Source: an uncultured Nitrososphaerales archaeon (lineage in GTDB: Archaea > Thermoproteota > Nitrososphaeria > Nitrososphaerales > Nitrososphaeraceae). From it: a DNA stretch of 64,000 nucleotides. The number at the start of each line of letters is the position of its first letter. Positions within the stretch are counted from its first letter, which is position 1. A program made the translations under genes and the position numbers. Of this stretch, positions 1,992 through 11,771 are shown piece by piece. The notes under the pieces are model-generated. The model did not search any database. It saw only the letters and a program-made list of their open reading frames with translations, and was not told the DNA's origin. The DNA lies in the NCBI GenBank assembly GCA_963841565.1, contig CAWJCY010000007.1, positions 64,001-128,000 of the forward strand, written 5' to 3'.

Positions 1992-2696
1992 TTACTTTGT
2001 TGCAGCTATAATTACCGCTCCCCCTAACATATACTTCCTAAACTGGACCTCTGAAAACTCCCTTTCTAGCATCCTCTTAAGTTCTGAATTCTTTGGCCAT
2101 CGTTTGTAAGTTCCATATAATGCCCTAAACCCTAGTCCTTTACTGCCGGCTACTGTGAATGCCAGAAAACCTAAAACATATTTCAGATACATACTAACAA
2201 GAGCATCCAAAAAGACCTGGTCCGGCTTGCCAAGATCTACAATCAGTAGTCTTCCATTAGGCTTCAGAATGCGGTGAAATTCTGCGATCGCATCTTTAAG
2301 ATGAATGGCATCCCTCAATGAATATCCACATAATACCGCATCAAAAATATTGTTTCTGAAGGGCAAATATTCAAAAATACCTGAGGATAATTGAATACTC
2401 AAATCAGATTCATCGTCAAGTGATCTCCCAATTCGAAGCATTTCGATAATTGGGTCGTACAGAATTACCTCTAATTCGCCATTCATTTCAATTCTGGCCA
2501 ACTTAGACATATTGCCAAAACCAGAACCCGCATCCAATATTCTATCTCCAAAATTTAGCTGTCTGTTCAAACACATTCTCCTATAGTCGGCGTCCTTGCC
2601 AAGAGAAATCACTCTATTTACTCTGTTGTAAACGGGAATGATACTTCTTAGTGTCGAGATTACTTCAGGCCAGTATGTTTTGCCCAGACCGGACAT
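1992..2696 (-). CDS. UbiE/MenG-like class I SAM-dependent methyltransferase
   Basis: Motif I ILDAGSGFG, LPFRNNIFDAV, EFHRILKPNGRL; YNRVNRVISLG as in the UbiE family. ATG at 2696 preferred. Confidence 0.85.
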   Translation of the reverse strand: MSGLGKTYWPEVISTLRSIIPVYNRVNRVISLGKDADYRRMCLNRQLNFGDRILDAGSGFGNMSKLARIEMNGELEVILYDPIIEMLRIGRSLDDESDLSIQLSSGIFEYLPFRNNIFDAVLCGYSLRDAIHLKDAIAEFHRILKPNGRLLIVDLGKPDQVFLDALVSMYLKYVLGFLAFTVAGSKGLGFRALYGTYKRWPKNSELKRMLEREFSEVQFRKYMLGGAVIIAATK

Positions 2697-2877
2697 TGTA
2701 ACCTCCAATCAGTGCGTGAAGAATATTATCTTTCTTAGAAACAAATCACGGAACGATTAGAGATTACTAATGATCATCAATTTCATGGTGCACAGCTTTA
2801 GCTTCTGGCGATGACAAACCTACCGCAGATTCTGAAAAAGCATAGTTAGCAGAACCCAGCAAATGTTGATTAATGAC

Positions 2878-3534
2878 ATGTCAGAATATAGATCTGTGTC
2901 AGTTACTACTAACGAATATGTCTGTGGAGATTGTGGATCTCAATTGCTCCATGAAAACCCAAATACGCTTCAGAGCATGATAGATATACACAATCAGTTG
3001 TGCCCAGTGAAAAGGCAAAAGACTTTGCCAGGTCAAATGGTATCGTCAAAACCCTCTCCTCCCAACAAGGCTATAGCACGGCAACCAACTTCAGCGTCAG
3101 TTGCCGCTCCTCAACCTCAGGTAAGCCAAATCCCCGAAATGAAAGGTCCTGCATCGGGAGGTGGCGCTACAACTATATCTTTAGCGGGCAGCGGAACAAG
3201 CTACTCCAAAGCTGAAGGTCCAATTGACCCTGATTTTAAATCAAAGCGTAGCGTTGTTGGAACATTCCAAGATATAAAGGTCTGGGGTGAAGTGGATCCT
3301 CCTGGACGATTGGGTATCTGGGGTTCAGAAGTTACAGTAGATTTTGATATCTGTGTTGCAGATGGAGCTTGTATTGAAGCATGCCCTGTGAATGTTTATG
3401 AATGGCTTGATACTCCTGGACATCCTGCCTCTGAAAAGAAACCATTTATGATTAGAGAAAAGGATTGTATATTCTGTATGGCATGCGAAAATGTCTGTCC
3501 TCCTCAGTGTGTAAAGATATTCAATAAAGGTTAA
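2878..3534 (+). CDS. Dicluster (7Fe-type, Zfx-like) ferredoxin with an extra N-terminal C2HC module and Pro/Ser/Gly linker
   Basis: C-terminal [12 protein letters not shown] and [12 protein letters not shown] motifs; N-terminal CGDC...HNQLC. Confidence 0.85.
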
Positions 3535-3642
3535 CTATGATAATTGAATAATTGAGGTCATTTTGATTGCTTCCTACTATTACTTGGAGACGAGTTCAAA
3601 AATCTTAGGCTCATTAATCTAGAGAAGCGCTAGATCTTCGAA

Positions 3643-4125
3643 GTGCCAACGGAACAATTTGATCTAGTAGCCACAGGAGGTACGTTCGATGAAATCCATG
3701 CTGGGCATCGGGAGTTGCTAACTAGGGCCTTCGGTTTGGGAAGATCCGTGCTGATAGGGGTCTCAAGCGATAATTTCGCAGCAGCAAAGAAAGGCAAGAA
3801 TAGACTGAGGCACAGGTTCGAAACTAGGGTAGAAAGGTTAGTCCAATTCATTCATGATGAGTTTGGAAATGTAAATTTCGAAATTAAAGAACTAAATGAC
3901 GATTTTGGACCTACCAGCTTGGACAGAAATCTCCAAGCTCTTGTTGTCAGCGAAGAAACCGAACCGAAGGGACATGAAATTAATAGAATTCGGTCAAGCA
4001 AAGGATTTGACCCTTTGGTAATCGTTACAGTCACAATGCTAAAGGCAGAAGACGGTCGACCACTCTCATCATCTCGAATTCGTTATGGAGAAATTGACAG
4101 GAATGGGAGAGTCTTGAGGAAGTAG
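3643..4125 (+). CDS. coaD: Phosphopantetheine adenylyltransferase (archaeal type)
   Basis: GGTFDEIHAGH (HxGH), LVVSEET and LSSSRIR motifs. Confidence 0.9.
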   Translation: MPTEQFDLVATGGTFDEIHAGHRELLTRAFGLGRSVLIGVSSDNFAAAKKGKNRLRHRFETRVERLVQFIHDEFGNVNFEIKELNDDFGPTSLDRNLQALVVSEETEPKGHEINRIRSSKGFDPLVIVTVTMLKAEDGRPLSSSRIRYGEIDRNGRVLRK

Positions 4126-4298
4126 AGTGAATTATGGTAATATTCGATCTTATGACAGAAACCTTTTCTGCCACCATGAATCCTGTTCATTTAGCTAAAG
4201 TTTTCGGCCGGTTTTATAAATGGAAGTAGCCCCCCGTCATGCTAACGAGATGAGTTTCAGGCAGACAGTATTCCAGTAAGACAATAAAAATGAATAAT

Positions 4299-4595
4299 TT
4301 ATCCTATATCTATGTGGACGGTATTTCTATGAGCACGAATAGACAGAGGCTTTCTCCCCTCATTAAGTATCATATATGCAGTCTTTTGAAGCCTTTCAAC
4401 GGATTCTTTGTCCGACATCGTTATGCTATGTGAACTATCATCATCTAGAACCAAAATTAACTCTTTCTCGCTTACGATGGCCACATGTTTGAGCGAGTTC
4501 TGTTCTCTATTTGGGGATAGTATCCACATCAGTTTCTCAGCTTCGTACTCGTCCTCACAATCGATATTTTCTGTGTCCCTAGAAGTGCTACTCAA
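4299..4595 (-). CDS. Hypothetical protein (~98 aa) downstream of trpS
   Basis: In-frame TTG at 4595 overlaps the trpS stop; no recognisable motif. Confidence 0.55.
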   Translation of the reverse strand: MSSTSRDTENIDCEDEYEAEKLMWILSPNREQNSLKHVAIVSEKELILVLDDDSSHSITMSDKESVERLQKTAYMILNEGRKPLSIRAHRNTVHIDIG

Positions 4596-5770
4596 AGGGG
4601 TTTTCCTCATAAAGAAACAAATCGACTTGATTCCTTGCTTGATCTCTTCGCCTAGTAAACTCTGACATGAAGGACTTTGTCTGAGTGGTGAGATCGGATT
4701 TACATTCCCCACATAATAAATTACCTGTTCTACATTTTAGAGATCGTTCAAACGATTCCTTTCCATTGTCAAAGAAATGGCTCAGGTACCAAAACACTGG
4801 ACATGCATCTGGATCTCCTCCTAATATCCTTTGTAGAGCAACTGACGGTTGCCCTCCTGTGTACGCGCCTGAAATCTTGCTTTCAATCGTTTCTGGGTCG
4901 TCGGTTGTAAAAATAGCACCAGTAGGTTTTGAAGATGACATCTTACCATTCATTTCTAAACTTGGTACAAACTTACTGTGGACTTGTGCCGGTTTATAGT
5001 ATCCCATCTTCTCTGCTATGTCTCTTGTAATCCTCCAGTATGGATCTTGATCAATTGCGAGCAGGGATTAGCACGCGAGTAGGCTTCTTTTCGATCAAGG
5101 ATGGCAAAAAGCAAGGGGCAGCTTGAATAGCGGGAAACCCTATCATTCCTATATTAGACGATGGCTTAAACCCAAATACGGCTTTTGCAGTGGAAAAGGT
5201 TAACCTTTTTGAGATCTCTAGATAAAGAGGGTATAAAGTTTGGATATTTTTAGTATCAATAACAATTCGAGTCAGCGTGGGGTCAAATCCCATGGCTATG
5301 ACGTCAAGGATATTGTCGTACGCGTACTTCTCCACTTCTTGCAAGCTGAGTTGATGACTATAGAGAAATTTTTCGTCATCGGTAATCTGAAACAAGAGTC
5401 TGGATCCAAATGTATCTTGAAGATATTTTGTGAAAAACCACGGCATCAAGTGACCCATATGAACATGACCAGAAGGGCCTCTGCCGGTGTAAAGGTAGAA
5501 ATTTTCTCCATTTCCGTACGCGTCTAGTACTACGTCCAAGTCCCTGTGAGAAAAGAAGAAGCCACGTGATAAGAGAGGATGAACATTTCCGGAAAACTTT
5601 TGCAATTTCTCGATAATTTCAGGAGTAATTAATCGGGTGCCGAATTCTTGGACAATTTTATTGTAGTCAACAACACCGTCGACCTGCCACGGCGTCACAC
5701 TGTACTCTCTTTCTAAATTGTCTGCTTCATATCCTACTGATTCCTCGATTTCCTCATCCCGTTCATCCAT
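4588..5770 (-). CDS. trpS: Tryptophan--tRNA ligase (apparent +1 frameshift at ~5059)
   Basis: YTGRGPS..HMGH, QITDDEK, KMSSS. Removing one base gives IPAAIDQDPYWR and joins ORFs 5051-5770 and 4588-5007. Confidence 0.95.
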
Positions 5771-5844
5771 TCGAATTATTTCACGACCTTAATCTGATTA
5801 AACGTTTAAAAAGTGTTCTTCGCTCAGAAGATTAAAAACAAATT

Positions 5845-7357
5845 ATGACTTATAAAGTAACTGCATTACATCCTATCGAGAAAAAGATTCTCCACCTCCT
5901 GGGTAAGGATGGCTCCCTTACAGTTGAAGCGTTGTCAGAGAAGAGCGACTTGACCATCGACCAGGTGAGGAGAGGAGTAGAACGGCTAAAATTCAAGCAG
6001 CTCATACTGATCACTCAAGATTCATCTATCTTCTTTGAGTTGGATGAGCGTGGGAAATCCGCCTTACTCAAAGGATTGCCTGAGAGAAGGTTGGTCAGTG
6101 CTATTCAGTTAGAGCCTGATAAAGGGATTGCAATGCTTGCAAAGACACAGGCGTTTGAGCGGGATGAGCTGGGTGCGGCTATTCGGGTTGCAAGGGATCA
6201 AAACCATTGGTTGCTTCCGGCTTCTGGTGATAAAAACAGATCTAATCTAAGAATTAGTCAATCAATATCAGAAACCTCTCCAGAAGAACAGGTTATAGAA
6301 CGATTCAGAAACGTACAGCGAATCTCTGAAAATGAATTAAATGACATTGAGAAGAAGGGTGTGGAGCTCCTCCTAAGGAGACCAAATTATCTAAGAAAGA
6401 TTCAACAACAAACTGTTACTATATCATTAACAGCAGTTGGGAGGTCGATGGTTGAAGAGATCACCATGCCTAAATCTAATAAAACAGAGTCCGTTAGATC
6501 AGAGACTAGAGCAGAAGACCGGCCAGAAAGTTTTGCAATAGACCTTGAAGCTGCAGTTAAGGTCGCGTCCCCAGGCAAAACGCACCCATTGACTGATTTA
6601 ATTGCAGAGATTAAAGAGATTTTCGTGAGCATGGGATTCACCGAGATAGCGGGTGACATCATCCAGACATCCTTTTGGAACTTTGATGCATTGTTTACGC
6701 TTCAGGACCACCCTGCCAGAGAAATGCATGATACATACTATCTTTCTGGGCTCAGGAATGTAAAGGAAATAGCGAGCAAAGAGCAGATCGCAAATGTTTC
6801 TAAAATACATAACAAAAATTCAATCAATGTCTGGGATGTTCGAGAGTCCAACCGCCTAGTACCTACGTACTCATACGACTCCGGTCACACTGAAATATCT
6901 AGCAGATAACCAACCTGATGAGGCAAAGCTTTTCTCGGTAGGGACTGTGTTTCGAAATGAAAAAGTAACAAAGGGTCACCTCTCTGAATTCTTTCAGATT
7001 GAAGGGGTAGTCACCAAGCCGAACGCCTCAGTTAGGGATCTAATGGGGTTACAAACGGAATTCTATCGCAAATTGGGAATCCAAAAAGTAAAGTTTTGGC
7101 CTACTTTCTTTCCATATACTGAACCATCTTTACAATCAATGGTATATATCGAAAAAGTCGACAAATGGTTGGAACTCTTTGGAATGGGAATATTTAGGGA
7201 TGAGGTCACCCTTCCAATGAAAATCAGAAATCCAGTTCTTGCTTGGGGAGGAGGGCTCGAGCGCTTGGCAATGTTACGACTAGGCATAGATGACATAAGA
7301 ACGCTTTACAGCAACAAGATCGAGTGGTTAAGGAGCGTTCCCAAATGCCAGTTATAG
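5845..7357 (+). CDS. pheS: Phenylalanine--tRNA ligase alpha subunit (apparent +1 frameshift at ~6862)
   Basis: FWNFDALF..QDHPAREMHDT, restored VLRTHTT, FRNE, FFPYTEPS, GLERLAM. Confidence 0.95.
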
Positions 7358-9018
7358 AAGTTCCACTAACTGTCCTAACCAAGTCATTCCCCCAGAATTC
7401 CCTTGAAGATATCATCGCCTCTGTTCCCTTCATAGGCCTCGATATAGAAGGTAGAGATGATAAGTTCATTAGATTAGAATATAATCCTAATCGACCAGAC
7501 TTTTCATCCTATGTCGGAATTGTGCGAGCGCTCAAGGGGTATCTTGGATTAGAAACGGGACTTCCCAAATATAGATTAAAAAATGACAAGAAATTTCAGA
7601 TTGAAATTAGCGATTCGGTAAGATCAATCAGGCCCTACATTAGGGCCTTAGTTGCTAAGGAAATAGAATTAGATAATGACCTTATCAAGATGCTAATAGA
7701 TATGCAAGAAGATTTGCATATGGGAATATGTAACAAGAGAAAGGTTGCATCTATAGGTCTACATAATCTTAATAAGATTAGGTTTCCTCTAAGTTACTTG
7801 GCGTCCAGTTCCGATATTTCATTTGTGCCTCTGGATTCCAGTCAAGCCCTTTCGCTCAACGAGATCTTAAGCTCAACGGATGTGGGTAAGAGGTATTCTT
7901 ATTTGCTTGGAAAGACAAATGACTTCCCTATCCTACTAGATGTCGAAAAGCAAGTTGTATCATTCCCTCCCATAGTGAATTCAAAAAATACCAGATTAGA
8001 CAATCGATCAAAGGGCATATTTGTTGAAATCACTGCTATCGACCCAAATGTGGCCGATCTCATTTCAGCTATATATGCTGCAACATTGTACGACATGAAA
8101 TTCAAGGTTTATCAAGTTACATTAAATGAAACCAAAGGCTCATCAACTAAATCCCCTGATATGAGTCCCTCGTCGGTATCAGCCAGCATTATAGAGATAA
8201 ATAAATATCTAGGGACAAAATTACCTCGAAAGGTGATTGTTAGAGCTGCAGCTCGTAGCCGGTTAGGCACAAGAAATTCAGCACATGGGAAGCTAACGTG
8301 TATTGTACCTAGGTACAGAAATGATGTTAGGCATATTAGAGACTTGATTGAGGAGGTGATGATCGGCCTTGGAATATCGAAACTTTCCCCGACGTTACCA
8401 TTGGTCAATGTAACTGGAAATAGGAACACATATTCGATTCTTATCGATAAGATCAAAGAGGTATTGGTTGGGCTTGGGCTTTTGGAGGTCAGAAACTTTG
8501 CCATAGTTTCGAGGTTTCTGCAGTATGATTCTATGGGTCTGAAGCCGGAAGAATCGTCAATTTTTAAGATTGAAAATTCTCTGGTCTCCGGATTTGATAC
8601 TTTGCGCAATTCTCTCCTTCCTTCGCTTATCGATACCATTGGACACAATATCCATAGCTCTTATCCTCAAAATATCTTTGAGATTGGCAAAGTATTTACA
8701 AAAGGAGAATCTGAAACTGAAAAATGGCATCTTTGTGTGGCACTTGCTTATAATAGGGCCGACTACACCAGTATCAAATCGATATTGCAGGCCTTTTTGA
8801 AAGTTGCTTTTGGTAAAGATATAGTAACTACCCCAAATTCTTATGGTGTGGAATACACCATTGGTCGTTCTGCGAGTATAAAAGTGGAAGGGAACGAAGT
8901 GGGTAAAATTGGTGAAATTAGTGACTTCGTCAGGCAAAGTCATAGGGTACGCGTACCTGTGGCAGCCTTTGAAATAGACCTTTCTCCTTTTCTCATTTCG
9001 TTTCGAACATTAATGTGA
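7345..9018 (+). CDS. pheT: Phenylalanine--tRNA ligase beta subunit
   Basis: MPVIEV start overlapping pheS; NRPD, QEDLH, FPPIVNS, LRNSLLPSL. Confidence 0.95.
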   Translation: MPVIEVPLTVLTKSFPQNSLEDIIASVPFIGLDIEGRDDKFIRLEYNPNRPDFSSYVGIVRALKGYLGLETGLPKYRLKNDKKFQIEISDSVRSIRPYIRALVAKEIELDNDLIKMLIDMQEDLHMGICNKRKVASIGLHNLNKIRFPLSYLASSSDISFVPLDSSQALSLNEILSSTDVGKRYSYLLGKTNDFPILLDVEKQVVSFPPIVNSKNTRLDNRSKGIFVEITAIDPNVADLISAIYAATLYDMKFKVYQVTLNETKGSSTKSPDMSPSSVSASIIEINKYLGTKLPRKVIVRAAARSRLGTRNSAHGKLTCIVPRYRNDVRHIRDLIEEVMIGLGISKLSPTLPLVNVTGNRNTYSILIDKIKEVLVGLGLLEVRNFAIVSRFLQYDSMGLKPEESSIFKIENSLVSGFDTLRNSLLPSLIDTIGHNIHSSYPQNIFEIGKVFTKGESETEKWHLCVALAYNRADYTSIKSILQAFLKVAFGKDIVTTPNSYGVEYTIGRSASIKVEGNEVGKIGEISDFVRQSHRVRVPVAAFEIDLSPFLISFRTLM

Positions 9019-9432
9019 GAAGACGGTTAAAAATGAGAACAACGAGCATGATTGTGTGAGTATTTTTAAGCGAGTAATAGACTATTTGAATTCTTTTGCA
9101 AAATCTAAGATCAGAAAGGAGGATTGTACTTGCTCAGATTTTATCCACCTAGTTTTTCAACATTTGTATTCAAAATTATTGGAATTTTCAACTAACTTGG
9201 TTAAATGGGTCTGTACTCTGACATAAATAAGAAATGGTATTGTGGCCATTTGTTATACTGTGAGATCCTCTCCTGGATACCTACTTCAACATCTTGTGAC
9301 TTTATGTTAACTATACATGTGAGGATAAGCCTTGATCTGGGACTTCTGAAATATTTTTTATGCAACATGATGTGACCCATCGCCTAGACACTAGTATTAT
9401 GCAAATATATACGTCTACAATCTCCCTTGTTA

Positions 9433-9517
9433 TCCCCGTTAGAGAGTACGCTAGGAGGGAATACACATGAGTGTAACAGGCTACCCGTGAATAGTAGTGG
9501 GTCAGAGGCGGGGGACA
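9433..9517 (+). ncRNA. Candidate ~85-nt structured small RNA (H/ACA-like architecture)
   Basis: TATA-like AAATATATA ~25 nt upstream. 5' TCCCCGTT (9433-40) pairs with 3' GGCGGGGG (9507-14), followed directly by ACA and TTTT. Internal hairpins TACAC-ATGA-GTGTA and ACCCG...TGGGT. Confidence 0.45.
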
Positions 9518-9535
9518 TTTTAACTATCCTTTGGA

Positions 9536-9709
9536 TTACCTAAACTCGTCGATCATATTTTTTATAATGGATCTCGCTTCAGAAGAAATATTATAACCAG
9601 CTAGGACTTTGGTCGGTTCTGAAAGCAAGAGTCTTCTGAAATTTGGTTCACTCGCTGCCCTAAGAAGAATGTCGCTAACTATTTTTGCATCCCAGTTTCT
9701 AAATTCCAA
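9536..9709 (-). CDS. 57-aa NHLP-clan (Os1348/Franean1_4349-like) RiPP-leader-like protein; absent from the ORF track
   Basis: Translated by hand: MEFRNWDAKIVSDILLRAASEPNFRRLLLSEPTKVLAGYNISSEARSIIKNMIDEFR. RAAxEPxFRxxLLxEPxxVLxGYxIS matches the NHLP-clan leader pattern. TTG start ~25 nt after an AATTAA box; divergent from ycaO. Confidence 0.7.
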   Translation of the reverse strand: MEFRNWDAKIVSDILLRAASEPNFRRLLLSEPTKVLAGYNISSEARSIIKNMIDEFR

Positions 9710-9807
9710 CCAGGATCATGCTGTATATGGAATCTTAATTTGTAGTTTTCTACCCACGATATATCACAAGAACATTATTATTCTTAAAATTTGATTCCGG
9801 ATAAGTA

Positions 9808-11115
9808 TTGCGACTGGTAGACCGGTTTAAATGGTCCAATAATGGCACAAGTAGAATCCAACCTCCAGAAAAGACCCTTCTCGCAGTGGAGGCGATCGCA
9901 GGAAAGATTGGGGTGACACGTATCGGCAACATAACCTATCTGGACAGACTCGGTATTCCCAATTATTCGGTTGTTCTGCCCGGTACAGAGGATTATATTT
10001 GGGTCTATAGCGGAAAGGGTTTTACCATGAAGCAGGCCCGGACAAGCGGCCTTATGGAAGCTGTAGAACGCTATTCTTCTTTGCCTAGCAGCTATGAACG
10101 TCCATTCATCAGAGATTCATATTTTGAGCTGTCAAAAAGGTATAACGTACTAAGTCCAGATGATGTTTGTGAACCCCTTTCTATTCAATATAAGAATGAT
10201 ATGATAATGGATTATGTTCAAGGCTTTGATCTGGTTTCTCATGAACAAATTCTAGTACCATCCGCTTTGGTCATGTTTAGGTACGCTCAGGGCGGGAAGG
10301 CTGTCAATCCGTTCTCATTCTCCCACACAAACGGATTAGCATCAGGAAATGTTTTGGAGGAAGCGATATGTCACGCTTTGTGTGAAGTCGTTGAGCGAGA
10401 TGCATCAAGTTTGGCTGACTTACGTTCGAGCGCCTTTCCCTTTCATTTTATAAAGATCCTCACGAATAAGTTTAAAGAGAGCGGGTACGAAATAAACGAA
10501 ATTCCTTCGGATAGTATGGTTGATGAACCAAATTTGTTTCCAATGCTCGATCTAGAGGGTGCTATCAATGAACCGGCGAGAAATTTAGTGAATAGATTTA
10601 AGGCTGCAAATATTTCCTTGATGGTTAAGGAGATTACAAGTGATGTGGGAATACCAACATTCAACGCTGCAAGCGTTGAATGGCTGACTCAGAATTACGG
10701 CTATCTTGCTGAAGGAACGGGTACGCACCCAGACGCCAGAATTGCACTGGTAAGGGCGATTACAGAACTTGCTCAGACTCGAGCGGCTAACATTCAAGGC
10801 GCTCGAGATGATCTTCGCAAAATTAACTATGTGGGTGAAAATTCAGAGGACAAGAGATCGTGGCAATTCATGAATTCTGATCGAAAGGTTAGTCTCTCTG
10901 AGATCGATAGCTACTATAATGAAAACATACTAGATGATATAAGGTTAATTCTTAATCATCTTAAAGTCGTGGGACTAAAGAGAGCCATTGTGGTGGATTT
11001 AACGGTCCCGTGGATAGGAATTCCGGTAGTACGGGCCATCGTACCAGGTTTGGAAACATTCAAGTTCACAAAATCTGTTATAGGTCAAAGGGCGAGGAAT
11101 TATTTCAAGATATGA
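9808..11115 (+). CDS. ycaO: YcaO-family ATP-dependent amide-activating enzyme (TfuA-associated, thioamide type)
   Basis: GVTRIGNITYLDRLGIP, GKG..A..S.LMEAVERYS, TNGLASGN..EEAI.HALCEVVERDA, RAITELAQTR, GAR; C-terminal VPGLE with no PxPxP tail. Confidence 0.93.
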   Translation: MRLVDRFKWSNNGTSRIQPPEKTLLAVEAIAGKIGVTRIGNITYLDRLGIPNYSVVLPGTEDYIWVYSGKGFTMKQARTSGLMEAVERYSSLPSSYERPFIRDSYFELSKRYNVLSPDDVCEPLSIQYKNDMIMDYVQGFDLVSHEQILVPSALVMFRYAQGGKAVNPFSFSHTNGLASGNVLEEAICHALCEVVERDASSLADLRSSAFPFHFIKILTNKFKESGYEINEIPSDSMVDEPNLFPMLDLEGAINEPARNLVNRFKAANISLMVKEITSDVGIPTFNAASVEWLTQNYGYLAEGTGTHPDARIALVRAITELAQTRAANIQGARDDLRKINYVGENSEDKRSWQFMNSDRKVSLSEIDSYYNENILDDIRLILNHLKVVGLKRAIVVDLTVPWIGIPVVRAIVPGLETFKFTKSVIGQRARNYFKI

Positions 11116-11771
11116 AAAACGTAATTGTTTTTGTTGGTCCTAGTTTAGATACTGAAAAGGCACGAAAGGTATTGGAAGCCGACTATAGACCTCCAGCCAA
11201 GAAAGGAGATTTGATCAGATTGATTATGTCGTTAGACGATAATGAGACTGTGGTAGGACTAATTGATGGATATTTCTTGCTTGACTATCCGCCCACACCT
11301 ATTGAAGTTTATCAGTTGGTCGTCAGACACAATACTGTAGTAATAGGATCATCAAGCATAGGGGCTCTGCGAGCCGTTGAACTAGAAAAATTTGGGATGA
11401 TTGGCGTGGGAAAAATATTCCAATTATTCAAGCACGGGAGAATAGACGCGGACGACGAAGTAGCTGTAACCTTTTCTCACGACTTGTACCACCTTCAGTC
11501 TGAAGCAATGATAGATATTCGGTATAACTTATACCTATCACTGAAGAAAGGGTTTATCGATAAGGAAACCAAAAAAACTCTCACTAAGGTCGCCAAGGAT
11601 ATCTATTTCCCATTTCGTACATACCAAAATATCATTGAAGAAACCATCAGGCGATATCCTCAGCTGGATGATAAGGCAAGACGCTTCGAAGCCTATATCC
11701 TTAGAAATAGGAAGAGTCTAAAAGAGAGGGATGCTTTGAAACTTATTGAGTATATCAGAGATATGATTTAG
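11112..11771 (+). CDS. tfuA: TfuA-like protein
   Basis: ATG overlaps the ycaO stop (ATGA). VFVGPSL, PPAKKGD, GLIDGYF, GSSSIGALRAVEL, GMIGVGKIF, DDEVAV are TfuA core motifs. Confidence 0.92.
   Translation: MKNVIVFVGPSLDTEKARKVLEADYRPPAKKGDLIRLIMSLDDNETVVGLIDGYFLLDYPPTPIEVYQLVVRHNTVVIGSSSIGALRAVELEKFGMIGVGKIFQLFKHGRIDADDEVAVTFSHDLYHLQSEAMIDIRYNLYLSLKKGFIDKETKKTLTKVAKDIYFPFRTYQNIIEETIRRYPQLDDKARRFEAYILRNRKSLKERDALKLIEYIRDMI

Follow-up and report, generated by a model that had tools for sequence, protein, structure and literature searches.

A core-less protein of the Os1348/NHLP clan accompanies YcaO and TfuA in ammonia-oxidising archaea and is predicted to bind an insertion of YcaO

Here we report that the small open reading frame beside the ycaO-tfuA pair in the window (the whole stretch of 64,000 nucleotides that was analysed) is a real, conserved gene, that its protein is co-distributed with YcaO-TfuA and with an insertion in YcaO, and that, according to complex modelling, it probably docks onto this insertion. 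Profile comparisons clearly place the protein in the Os1348/NHLP clan, as a truncated form that ends after its fourth helix. The reading that we prefer, and to which we give about even confidence, is that the small protein is a leader-derived, dedicated partner of YcaO that acts in trans on a substrate encoded elsewhere. The new element is the predicted binding of the small protein to YcaO at a lineage-specific insertion. The locus comprises the following features:

9536-9709, minus strand: small ORF, 57 aa, TTG start and TAA stop; predicted four-helix protein, a putative core-less, truncated Os1348/NHLP-clan domain
9710-9807, no strand: divergent intergenic region of 98 bp in which each of the two genes has a conserved A/T-rich, TATA-like block
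9808-11115, plus strand: ycaO, 435 aa, TTG start; kin of the McrA-glycine thioamidation type, below the equivalog cut-off
10432-10563, plus strand: lineage-specific insertion of YcaO, residues A209-P233 and L243-A252 flanking the shared stretch 234-242
11112-11771, plus strand: tfuA, 219 aa, ATG start, overlapping the ycaO stop

The layout of the locus agrees with the original prediction. The tfuA ATG (11112-11114) overlaps the ycaO TGA (11113-11115), which gives the ATGA that had been described (the letters from 11101 onward are AAGATATGAAAA); the ORF listing yields a translation identical to that proposed for the 57-aa ORF on the opposite strand, 98 bp from ycaO; and inspection of the neighbouring genes, namely pheT, a GT2 glycosyltransferase gene and a radical-SAM gene, confirmed that no protease, exporter, RRE or ThiS adjoins the locus. 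The Pfam scan identified the YcaO domain PF02624 (241.7 bits, E = 1.6e-71) and the TfuA domain PF07812 (116.4 bits, E = 8.1e-34). The ORF had also been called hidden, which holds only relatively, as public MAG annotations already call a 57-58-aa 'hypothetical protein'. Its TTG is the sole possible start, with an in-frame TGA two codons upstream and the nearby ATG at 9719 being out of frame, and the TTG starts of both divergent genes are kept among relatives. Alignment of 11 same-genus sequences placed a conserved A/T-rich block about 27-44 nt upstream of the small-ORF TTG, in agreement with the TATA-like box proposed for this gene, and a second, invariant block (ATAATAATGTTCT, minus strand) 27-39 nt upstream of the ycaO TTG; in the same alignment the block AAAACTACAAATTAAGAT of the divergent intergenic region is largely invariant. 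Because the small gene and ycaO both start with TTG near TATA-like blocks, their mRNAs are probably leaderless.

In 51 of the 301 genomes of the class the frame of the small gene is conserved and uninterrupted, and it evolves under purifying selection (median dN/dS = 0.165, 51 usable of 55 pairs), so that the small ORF beside ycaO-tfuA is confirmed as real and beyond chance. Matches to it at E <= 1 were obtained in 23 of 24 other genomes of its family, a count that includes the unpublished genome G013. Contigs from the RNA libraries of two studies cover the gene as well, those identical to the window spanning 9450-9750 and 9457-9701. The orthologs all stop at one place, by means of TAA, TAG or TGA, 4-8 residues past helix 4, and contain neither a GG motif nor a core, so the description of the ORF as core-less applies to every one of them. 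Their last residues vary (DEFR, DDFK, DLTQ, GKEQL), and A18, A19, P22, F24, R25, L28, L36 and I53 are invariant among 22 orthologs. The AF2 model of the protein consists of four helices (pLDDT 87.4). Just past the stop of the small ORF lies a near-invariant stretch (9395-9521) that we considered as a 3' element or as a second ORF (44 aa, 9384-9518) and rejected in both capacities: it is conserved without codon wobble, is single-copy and, in many genera, is not linked to the small gene, and we take it for these reasons to be a separate RNA gene. Rfam and ARAGORN searches over 8900-9900 returned nothing except a sub-threshold U8 match.

Membership in the Os1348/NHLP clan, as originally claimed, stands at the level of profiles and not at that of the single sequence, which falls below every curated cut-off (22.2 bits against 40 for NF038399, with E = 1.1e-4; 13.1 against 50.9 for TIGR03793; 19.4 against 48 for PF14407). 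Comparison of the small-protein alignment with six bacterial Os1348-family proteins, picked from the family's own match list, gave 98.3% in hhalign (E = 1.2e-14, residues 8-51), and 54 of the 58 distant profile matches that were scanned, out of 99 from a search of 1.84 billion proteins, carry NF038399 and/or TIGR03793. The family profile also matches nitrile hydratase alpha (E = 1.2e-5) and the solved NHLP precursor 9cjx_A (E = 0.0029). A Foldseek comparison of the model with the PDB produced no match at E <= 0.001; its weak local matches were headed by the DesB C-terminal region (TMq 0.65) and included 6lk7_A (TMq 0.53), 8tb1 (TMq 0.50) and nitrile hydratase alpha (rmsd 1.1 A over 27 residues). 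Other NHLP-leader ORFs carrying cores, a scan for which had originally been proposed as a check, did not turn up when this genome was searched with TIGR03793, NF038399 and the small protein itself. Mimicry of McrA by the conserved x-Y-D-I-S loop, as a copy of F-G(thio)-F-D-L (this McrA motif being given in the available part of PMC5589413), was considered and rejected because bacterial Os1348-family proteins have this loop motif too (Y-[DNE]-L-[TS]-x-E-E).

The best family matches of YcaO and TfuA are TIGR03266 (289.2 bits, below the cut-off of 365) and NF033432 (208.2 bits, below the cut-off of 235.2), respectively, and the closest solved relative of YcaO is MJ1094 (E = 5.3e-42). The insertion in YcaO amounts to 35 residues, made up of helix 210-224 and a loop, and was found in all 19 YcaOs aligned and not in M. 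jannaschii MJ1094. It is present in 4 of 4 ammonia-oxidiser-lineage YcaOs compared and in none of the five TfuA-linked YcaOs from Mcr-bearing archaea of the same phylum, genomes in which McrA was found in five of five and the small protein in none. A search with the insertion (residues 203-250) retrieved 28 close relatives from 29 candidates and says nothing on distant YcaOs. Since the first stretch of YcaO matched by TIGR03266 runs to residue 226, some methanogen YcaOs beyond those compared may have a counterpart of helix 210-224.

Modelling of the small protein together with YcaO, proposed originally as a check, predicted binding with an ipSAE of 0.77, the best of three controls reaching 0.01; this score is the predictor's own confidence. 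Of 80 solved complexes, 58 attain the ipSAE mark applied, as do 2 of 110 mismatched pairs, counts that hold only roughly because our own alignments were used. The prediction runs share at least 97% of their contacts, with a pLDDT of the partner of at least 86. In the predicted complex the interface covers YcaO residues 211-242, and the best-conserved positions of the small protein (A18, A19, S20, E21, P22 and R25) contact YcaO 237-241. Binding as predicted here is equally compatible with the small protein being an adaptor, a substrate or an inhibitor.

The distribution of the three genes is informative with respect to their association. YcaO and TfuA were each detected in 53 of the 301 genomes, in the same three families as the small gene: each of the three proteins is encoded by 39 of the 39 genomes of family f1, YcaO and TfuA by 9 of 9 genomes of family f9 and 4 of 4 of family f4 (8 of 9 and 3 of 4, respectively, for the small protein), and none of the three by the 180 genomes of family f13 or by any other family. 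Among cultured lineages, Nitrososphaera has the system and Nitrosopumilus is without it. YcaO and TfuA accompany the small gene in each of the 51 genomes that encode it, and the small gene is missing from all 248 genomes devoid of YcaO-TfuA, a co-distribution that rests on about three family-level lineages whose relatives are not independent. Physical linkage, whose persistence among relatives had originally been proposed as a check, is kept in part: tfuA is at most 3.6 kb away from the small gene in 34 of the 51 genomes, and the other 17 retain the small gene elsewhere (14 in genus g29 together with G016, G199 and G233); in three complete g29 genomes it lies about 0.9-1.0 Mb from tfuA, and in that genus it sits in a different conserved context.

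These 17 genomes, and a co-distribution that could be phylogenetic inertia over about three families, would fit a small protein functionally unrelated to YcaO-TfuA, a small regulator or housekeeping protein whose adjacency was inherited with a shared divergent promoter region; the separate RNA gene, which adjoins the small gene in this genus and is unlinked elsewhere, illustrates that local synteny can be incidental. We regard such independence as highly improbable in view of the presence and absence counts given above, the difference between the complex prediction and its controls, the occurrence of the predicted docking insertion only where the small protein is found, and the near-neutral charge of the protein (9 basic and 8 acidic residues, counted by eye), which is atypical of a DNA binder.

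If the small protein does bind YcaO, it could do so as a regulator or relay, either as a gating inhibitor or as a bridge to TfuA or to a ThiS-type carrier, instead of being a leader that specifies the substrate. The predicted site at a peripheral insertion and a flexible C-terminal tail, away from the core elements, is in line with such a role, as are three matches to ThiS-family genes elsewhere in the genome, which make a recruiting factor conceivable. The RNA-library contigs that cover the small gene may also speak for this role; no contig lies over ycaO and one (90-95% alike) lies over tfuA, although contigs of this kind cannot show absence or expression level. However, no result favours a regulator above an adaptor, known TfuA-YcaO systems (those of the five Mcr-bearing genomes included) work without such a protein, and its ancestry appears to be that of a leader domain, which leads us to consider a regulator or relay quite unlikely.

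The main rival to our preferred reading, unlikely as we judge it, is that the small protein is itself the substrate, backbone-thioamidated by YcaO-TfuA after recognition of its tertiary structure and then neither cleaved nor exported. Family descriptions present NHLP-clan members normally as modified precursors, binding to YcaO is predicted, a locus without protease or exporter suits a product that stays in the cell, loop 38-42 is conserved although it lies outside the predicted interface, and E. coli YcaO recognises the fold of its protein substrate uL16 (available part of PMC13063428). Against a substrate speak the almost wholly helical structure, with no extended or Gly/Ser/Cys-rich stretch, the variable last residues, and predicted contacts limited to the YcaO insertion and C-tail; moreover, the Y-D-I-S loop, being a structural motif of the bacterial Os1348 family (Y-D/N/E-L-T/S-x-E-E), is not a McrA mimic.

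Returning to the leader-derived partner, we propose that the small protein would be a four-helix descendant of an Os1348/NHLP RiPP leader domain from which everything past helix 4, any core peptide included, would have been lost, and that it would have become dedicated to partnering the ammonia-oxidiser YcaO. The conserved AASEPxFR face and helix 4 of the small protein are predicted to pack on the YcaO insertion (helix 210-224 and the VDEPN loop) and on the flexible C-terminal tail. Bound in this manner, the small protein may serve as a permanent trans-acting 'leader', that is, as a subunit conferring specificity or activation. YcaO cyclodehydratases (LynD) are activated by leaders that are either fused or added in trans. 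TfuA would supply sulfide from a ThiS-type thiocarboxylate to YcaO, which would thioamidate a substrate encoded elsewhere, probably a cellular protein other than McrA. In this scheme the binding to YcaO is predicted by the complex model, and we infer the adaptor or activator role, the thioamidation chemistry and the nature of the substrate.

The statement that ammonia oxidisers have no known Mcr agrees with our search, PF02249 finding no McrA in the AmoA-bearing genome, which is 88.4% complete, while the control genomes do match. No substrate candidate for the ammonia-oxidiser YcaO-TfuA was found in this analysis. The presence of YcaO-TfuA in ammonia oxidisers is already published (PMC5589413 and PMC8120280, in their available parts). 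The earlier interpretation as a whole is partly supported. A more far-reaching possibility, which we advance tentatively and with more doubt than belief, is that ammonia oxidisers run a third protein-thioamidation system, in which a RiPP leader detached from its core and turned into a subunit seated in the YcaO insertion would give a YcaO-TfuA of the methanogen type a new target among the proteins of the cell. Backbone thioamides made by YcaO are known in two proteins only, McrA and E. coli uL16, according to the available text of PMC13063428.

Why ammonia oxidisers devoid of Mcr keep a methanogen-type YcaO-TfuA has been a question since 2017 (PMC5589413, available part), and a conserved partner with predicted binding offers a handle on it: the 57-aa protein is usable as a bait, the YcaO insertion is a precise site for mutational tests, and Nitrososphaera and Nitrosopumilus form a natural plus/minus pair. 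If the small protein turned out to be a leader that stands on its own, it would illustrate how modules for RiPP recognition can be co-opted to modify proteins and would provide a small natural activator domain for engineering YcaO enzymes; as a trans-acting subunit, it would be the natural counterpart of engineered 'leader in trans' enzymes.

Among known systems close to the locus, the one that modifies a glycine of McrA in methanogens likewise consists of a YcaO-TfuA pair with tfuA straight after ycaO, and in the available part of PMC5589413 the ammonia-oxidiser YcaOs fall in the methanogen McrA-thioamidation clade. Our locus differs from that system in that YcaO and TfuA score here below the equivalog cut-offs and McrA was not found (88% complete genome), and in possessing the 35-residue insertion and the partner protein, neither of which occurs in the five Mcr-bearing genomes examined, the insertion being missing from MJ1094 as well. 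The E. coli YcaO that thioamidates ribosomal protein uL16, recognising its folded, tertiary structure, resembles our proposal in being a modifier of a housekeeping protein and not a RiPP enzyme; the available part of its description (PMC13063428, 2026) presents it as acting without an RRE, and its authors expect further protein substrates. That system, however, lacks both TfuA and a small accessory protein, and its YcaO is only distant kin; the ammonia-oxidiser YcaO reaches 26.5 bits (E = 2e-6) against NF040716, whose cut-off is 700. Thioamitide clusters (thioviridamide and relatives) share with our locus the YcaO-TfuA pair; loci of this kind are labelled 'TfuA-related' clusters in genome mining, with eight reported in Thaumarchaeota (PMC8120280, available part); our locus, unlike those clusters, is without precursor core, protease, exporter and further tailoring enzymes.

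Os1348/NHLP leaders have in common with the small protein the signature I-L-x-R-A-x-x-[ED]-P-x-F-R-x-x-L-L-x-x-P ... Y-[DN]-[IL]-[ST], set in what is probably the same kind of helical N-terminal domain, and their genes, like that of the small protein, lie beside a peptide-modifying enzyme. The small protein stops after helix 4, covering model positions 3-46 of 63, whereas its bacterial relatives run 15-40 residues longer, adding another helix and a C-terminal core (...SDIRI or Cys-rich tails). Os1348 itself (Pseudomonas sp. Os17, PDB 6lk7) is small and dimeric in the crystal, its state depending on neighbouring modification genes, and its neighbours are a GNAT, a HEXXH peptidase and a SagB-type dehydrogenase (PMC7726476, available part), whereas the enzyme partner of the small protein would be YcaO-TfuA; the one bacterial Os1348-family locus that we examined, too few to generalise, contains a radical-SAM enzyme, a methyltransferase and a carbamoyltransferase and no YcaO. 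Structured leaders of the Nif11 type engage their enzymes in folded form, as four-helix bundles, as described for the MppE leader with MppG (bioRxiv 10.64898/2026.10.04.756588, available part), and such a four-helix leader domain making protein-protein contacts with its enzyme is what is predicted for the small protein. In MppE and in the proteusin NHLP precursor (PDB 8tb1), the leader is covalently joined to its core and is recognised partly via an RRE; the small protein differs from these structured long leaders in having neither core nor RRE, its predicted docking site being an insertion in YcaO itself.

Our analyses point to a probable YcaO-TfuA thioamidation system at this locus, in which the enzyme carries an insertion that matches a free-standing leader-type partner lacking a core. 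The features concerned are:

9536-9709, minus strand: small ORF of 57 aa, TTG start, TAA stop
9808-11115, plus strand: ycaO, 435 aa, TTG start (Pfam YcaO, 241.7 bits)
ATG at 11112, plus strand: tfuA, overlapping the ycaO stop codon (Pfam TfuA, 116.4 bits)

The translation of the small ORF, the 98 bp separating it from ycaO on the opposite strand and the ATGA overlap are exactly those of the original prediction. The closest NCBIfam models for YcaO and TfuA are those of the McrA-glycine thioamidation pair, and both proteins fall under the equivalog cut-offs (289.2 vs 365 bits for YcaO and 208.2 vs 235.2 bits for TfuA). Archaeal AmoA is present in the genome of the window, and McrA was not detected in this 88.4% complete assembly. 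The neighbours of the locus are pheT and genes for a GT2 glycosyltransferase and a radical-SAM protein. Nothing that encodes a protease, an exporter, an RRE or ThiS adjoins it, and the ThiS-family genes of this genome lie elsewhere, away from ycaO-tfuA. The TTG starts of the two divergent genes (9709-9707 and 9808-9810) are kept across the genus with a TATA-like block about 27-44 nt upstream of each, which suggests two leaderless mRNAs out of one 98-bp divergent region.

Beside the small ORF there is a non-coding element of about 87 nt (9434-9520, plus strand) that is better conserved than the neighbouring genes and is preceded, about 25 nt upstream (around 9403-9411), by a conserved AAATATATA box. 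Of 61 family genomes, 43 carry one copy of it, often unlinked from the small ORF; the tally takes in the unpublished genome G013, on which by itself no claim here depends. A closing stem (CCCCGUU/GGCGGGG) encloses an inner hairpin (UACAC/GUGUA), in which two pairs covary. The element terminates in ACA, and a T-rich run comes next. It is covered by RNA-library contigs, has no match in Rfam or among tRNAs, and looks like an H/ACA-type guide sRNA.

The small ORF is a genuine gene under selection. TTG is its sole possible start, there being an in-frame TGA two codons upstream and a nearby ATG out of frame, and among 23 loci, which include unpublished G013 and the copy in the window itself, 21 have TTG at the homologous position and 2 use ATG. 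Matches at E ≤ 1 were found in 23 of the 24 other same-family genomes, G013 again among them, and 22 of these have no internal stop. In the exception, a same-genus MAG that is 57% complete (G001:C23:41517-41688; loci L018 and L030), a frameshift breaks the ORF into two pieces that overlap, with an intervening TGA, owing either to an assembly error or to decay into a pseudogene. The protein was detected in 51 of 301 class genomes by a profile built from 22 orthologs, and dN/dS among 11 same-genus sequences had a median of 0.165 and a maximum of 0.38 (51 of 55 pairs usable), by comparison with 0.10 for ycaO (39 of 45 pairs usable), bearing out the conservation and purifying selection expected of it. 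The AlphaFold2 model made with this profile is a compact four-helix structure (pLDDT 87.4; helices 2-20, 22-30, 32-37 and 43-56). The RNA libraries of two studies contain contigs that match the window without a difference over 9450-9750 and 9457-9701; such contigs do not tell the strand or the level of expression, and the RNA gene next door may account for part of the coverage. Relatives at E ≤ 0.001 amount to 766 proteins, publicly annotated as 'hypothetical protein', with lengths of 56-88 aa among the best 120 of the 766; the sources named among the relatives listed are Nitrososphaeraceae, Nitrososphaera, Candidatus Nitrosopolaris and Thermoproteota.

Within the same 301 genomes TfuA and YcaO each occur in 53, in the same three families as the small protein. 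Family f1 has all three in 39/39 genomes, f9 has the enzymes in 9/9 and the small protein in 8/9, f4 has them in 4/4 and 3/4, and f13 (0/180) and all other families have none of the three, a family-level pattern that rests on few independent events. The small ORF is missing from two genomes that have YcaO-TfuA; both assemblies are fragmented, into 220 and 160 contigs, and in one of them ycaO is at a contig end. The original prediction asked whether the small ORF stays next to ycaO-tfuA; by comparison of coordinates it lies at most 3.6 kb from tfuA in 34 of 51 genomes, and in the other 17 (all 14 of genus g29, plus G016, G199 and G233) it lies elsewhere. In three complete g29 genomes the distance is 0.92-1.00 Mb, and in five g29 loci inspected the gene has a recurrent other context, with a large ORF for a membrane protein on one side and, on the other, an ORF whose product ends in ...YYHMRQ..GKKW. 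Because the small gene is kept after unlinking, its function would seem tied to genome content and not to a shared promoter; that it is functionally unrelated to YcaO-TfuA we consider improbable. Neighbouring arrangements also vary: in family f9 a 322-aa membrane-protein gene in ycaO orientation lies between ycaO and the small gene (L070, G032:C1, 3996-4964, minus strand), and in g29 the spot immediately upstream of ycaO, held by the small gene in other genera, is taken by a 126-aa ORF that has CxxC pairs and matches no Pfam family (L066, G216:C1, 2243-2623, plus strand).

Membership of the NHLP clan, as originally proposed, was recovered at the profile level and not from the single sequence, which stays under the cut-offs of NF038399 (22.2 vs 40 bits), PF14407 (19.4 vs 48) and TIGR03793 (13.1 vs 50.9). 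The ortholog profile matches nitrile hydratase alpha chains (E 1.2e-5 and 2.2e-5) and a solved 'NHLP leader peptide family' protein (E 0.0029), and against 1.84 billion representative proteins it gave 99 matches, with NF038399 and/or TIGR03793 on 54 of the 58 scanned. Alignment by hhalign to six bacterial Os1348-family proteins reached 98.3% probability over residues 8-51, these six being drawn from the small protein's own match list and five of them reaching the NF038399 cut-off unaided. A fold search lends weak support: nothing reached E ≤ 0.001, and the low-ranked local matches include nitrile hydratase alpha, Os1348 (6lk7) and a precursor of the proteusin type (8tb1). The bacterial relatives continue through a further helix into a C-terminal core, such as ...SDIRI or a Cys-rich tail, whereas the archaeal proteins end after helix 4; as the claim of a missing core had it, every ortholog stops 4-8 residues past the last helix, with TAA, TAG or TGA. 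Profile matches and this early ending together sustain, by sequence comparison, the assignment as a core-less, divergent NHLP-clan protein with Os1348 as nearest subfamily, NHLP having reportedly been defined by Haft in 2010. The scan of the window's genome for other NHLP-type ORFs came back empty. Mimicry of McrA by the loop of the small protein was rejected, the motif being common to the bacterial Os1348 family. One bacterial locus, L102, has a 72-aa Os1348-family gene with a conserved C-terminus ...DIRI (8001-8219, plus strand) directly after genes for a radical-SAM protein, a methyltransferase, a carbamoyltransferase and an ABC ATPase (2673-7987), and looks like an uncharacterised RiPP-type cluster.

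Multimer modelling, which the original prediction had proposed, yielded a predicted complex of YcaO and the small protein with ipSAE 0.77, where none of three controls exceeded 0.01; the calibration of the ipSAE mark (attained by 58/80 solved complexes and 2/110 mismatched pairs) used own alignments and is therefore rough only. Three runs shared at least 97% of contacts, with small-protein pLDDT of at least 86. The predicted contacts join helices 1-2 (residues 4-29, with the invariant AASEPxFR motif) and helix 4 (44-57) to YcaO residues 211-242 and 433-434. Judging from alignments, the contacted stretch is an insertion: where the window's YcaO has 42 residues, the solved M. jannaschii YcaO has 8, its alignment covering residues 15-206 and 249-430 of the window's protein. 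The insertion is kept in all 19 aligned ammonia-oxidiser-lineage YcaOs, genus g29 and a second paralog included. A phylum-wide sample showed TfuA in two further families, and five genomes of these have McrA (5/5) and ycaO adjoining tfuA (5/5). The insertion (window residues A209-P233 and L243-A252) is missing from their YcaOs, and the small-protein profile gave no match in the five genomes beyond noise within long ORFs (E 0.26-0.37). The insertion and the small protein therefore occur together, and where Mcr is absent, in a comparison that outside the ammonia oxidisers covers M. jannaschii YcaO and these five genomes of the same phylum. Modelled alone, YcaO has a helix (210-224) inside the insertion and a low-confidence C-terminal tail (417-435). 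Since the first stretch matched by TIGR03266 extends to residue 226, part of this helix may have counterparts in TfuA-linked YcaOs of euryarchaeal methanogens.

The second YcaO paralog of the window's genome (L071, G000:C3:1871-3244, minus strand; 457 aa, 49% identical to the window's YcaO) has the same insertion and no TfuA alongside. Around it are ORFs of 204 and 243 aa that carry no annotation, a membrane ORF of 449 aa and a gene for a Dyp-type peroxidase. The small protein may serve this paralog too; such extra copies are only sporadic in the family. Genus g5 has, additional to normal ycaO-tfuA, open frames of about 830 aa with a full YcaO domain (G017:C67:819-1805, G280:C128:3810-4793 and G306:C92:4109-5095), possibly fused YcaO proteins.

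Passages of two earlier studies state that ammonia-oxidiser YcaOs cluster with those of methanogens (PMC5589413), that Thaumarchaeota have eight 'TfuA-related' clusters and that putative precursors were detected in archaeal clusters of this kind (both PMC8120280). The TfuA passages of PMC4603692 do not concern archaeal NHLP proteins. In the literature on TfuA, YcaO and thioamidation in ammonia-oxidising archaea, and on TfuA with NHLP, we found no description of the small protein, the insertion or a substrate; supplementary tables of PMC8120280 might list the small ORF.

The original interpretation, a trans-acting leader or adaptor or else a thioamidated small protein, is thus supported in part, by the clan link, the lack of a core, the conservation and the predicted binding to YcaO. 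With moderate confidence we regard the small protein as a cargo-less leader-type subunit of YcaO, its binding being predicted and its role and chemistry inferred. A leader domain would have lost its cargo and turned into a fixed subunit, clamping the YcaO insertion and C-tail into a composite module that would either turn the enzyme on or present a substrate encoded elsewhere. TfuA would give sulfide from a ThiS-type carrier, a supply role ascribed to it in part of PMC13063428; that the small protein is instead a regulator or sulfur relay appears unlikely to us. The main rival, which we hold somewhat less unlikely, is that YcaO thioamidates the small protein itself: E. coli YcaO recognises folded uL16, which with McrA makes up the only characterised YcaO-thioamidated proteins, more being expected, according to passages of the same 2026 source (PMC13063428), but the small protein is almost wholly helical, its C-terminus is variable and its conserved loop is a family-wide structural motif and not an McrA look-alike. 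Returning to the cargo-less subunit, it would have parallels among known systems. One is the activation of LynD by a leader in trans. Another comes from a 2026 preprint, in which a four-helix Nif11 leader is shown to bind its enzyme as a folded domain (bioRxiv 10.64898/2026.10.04.756588).
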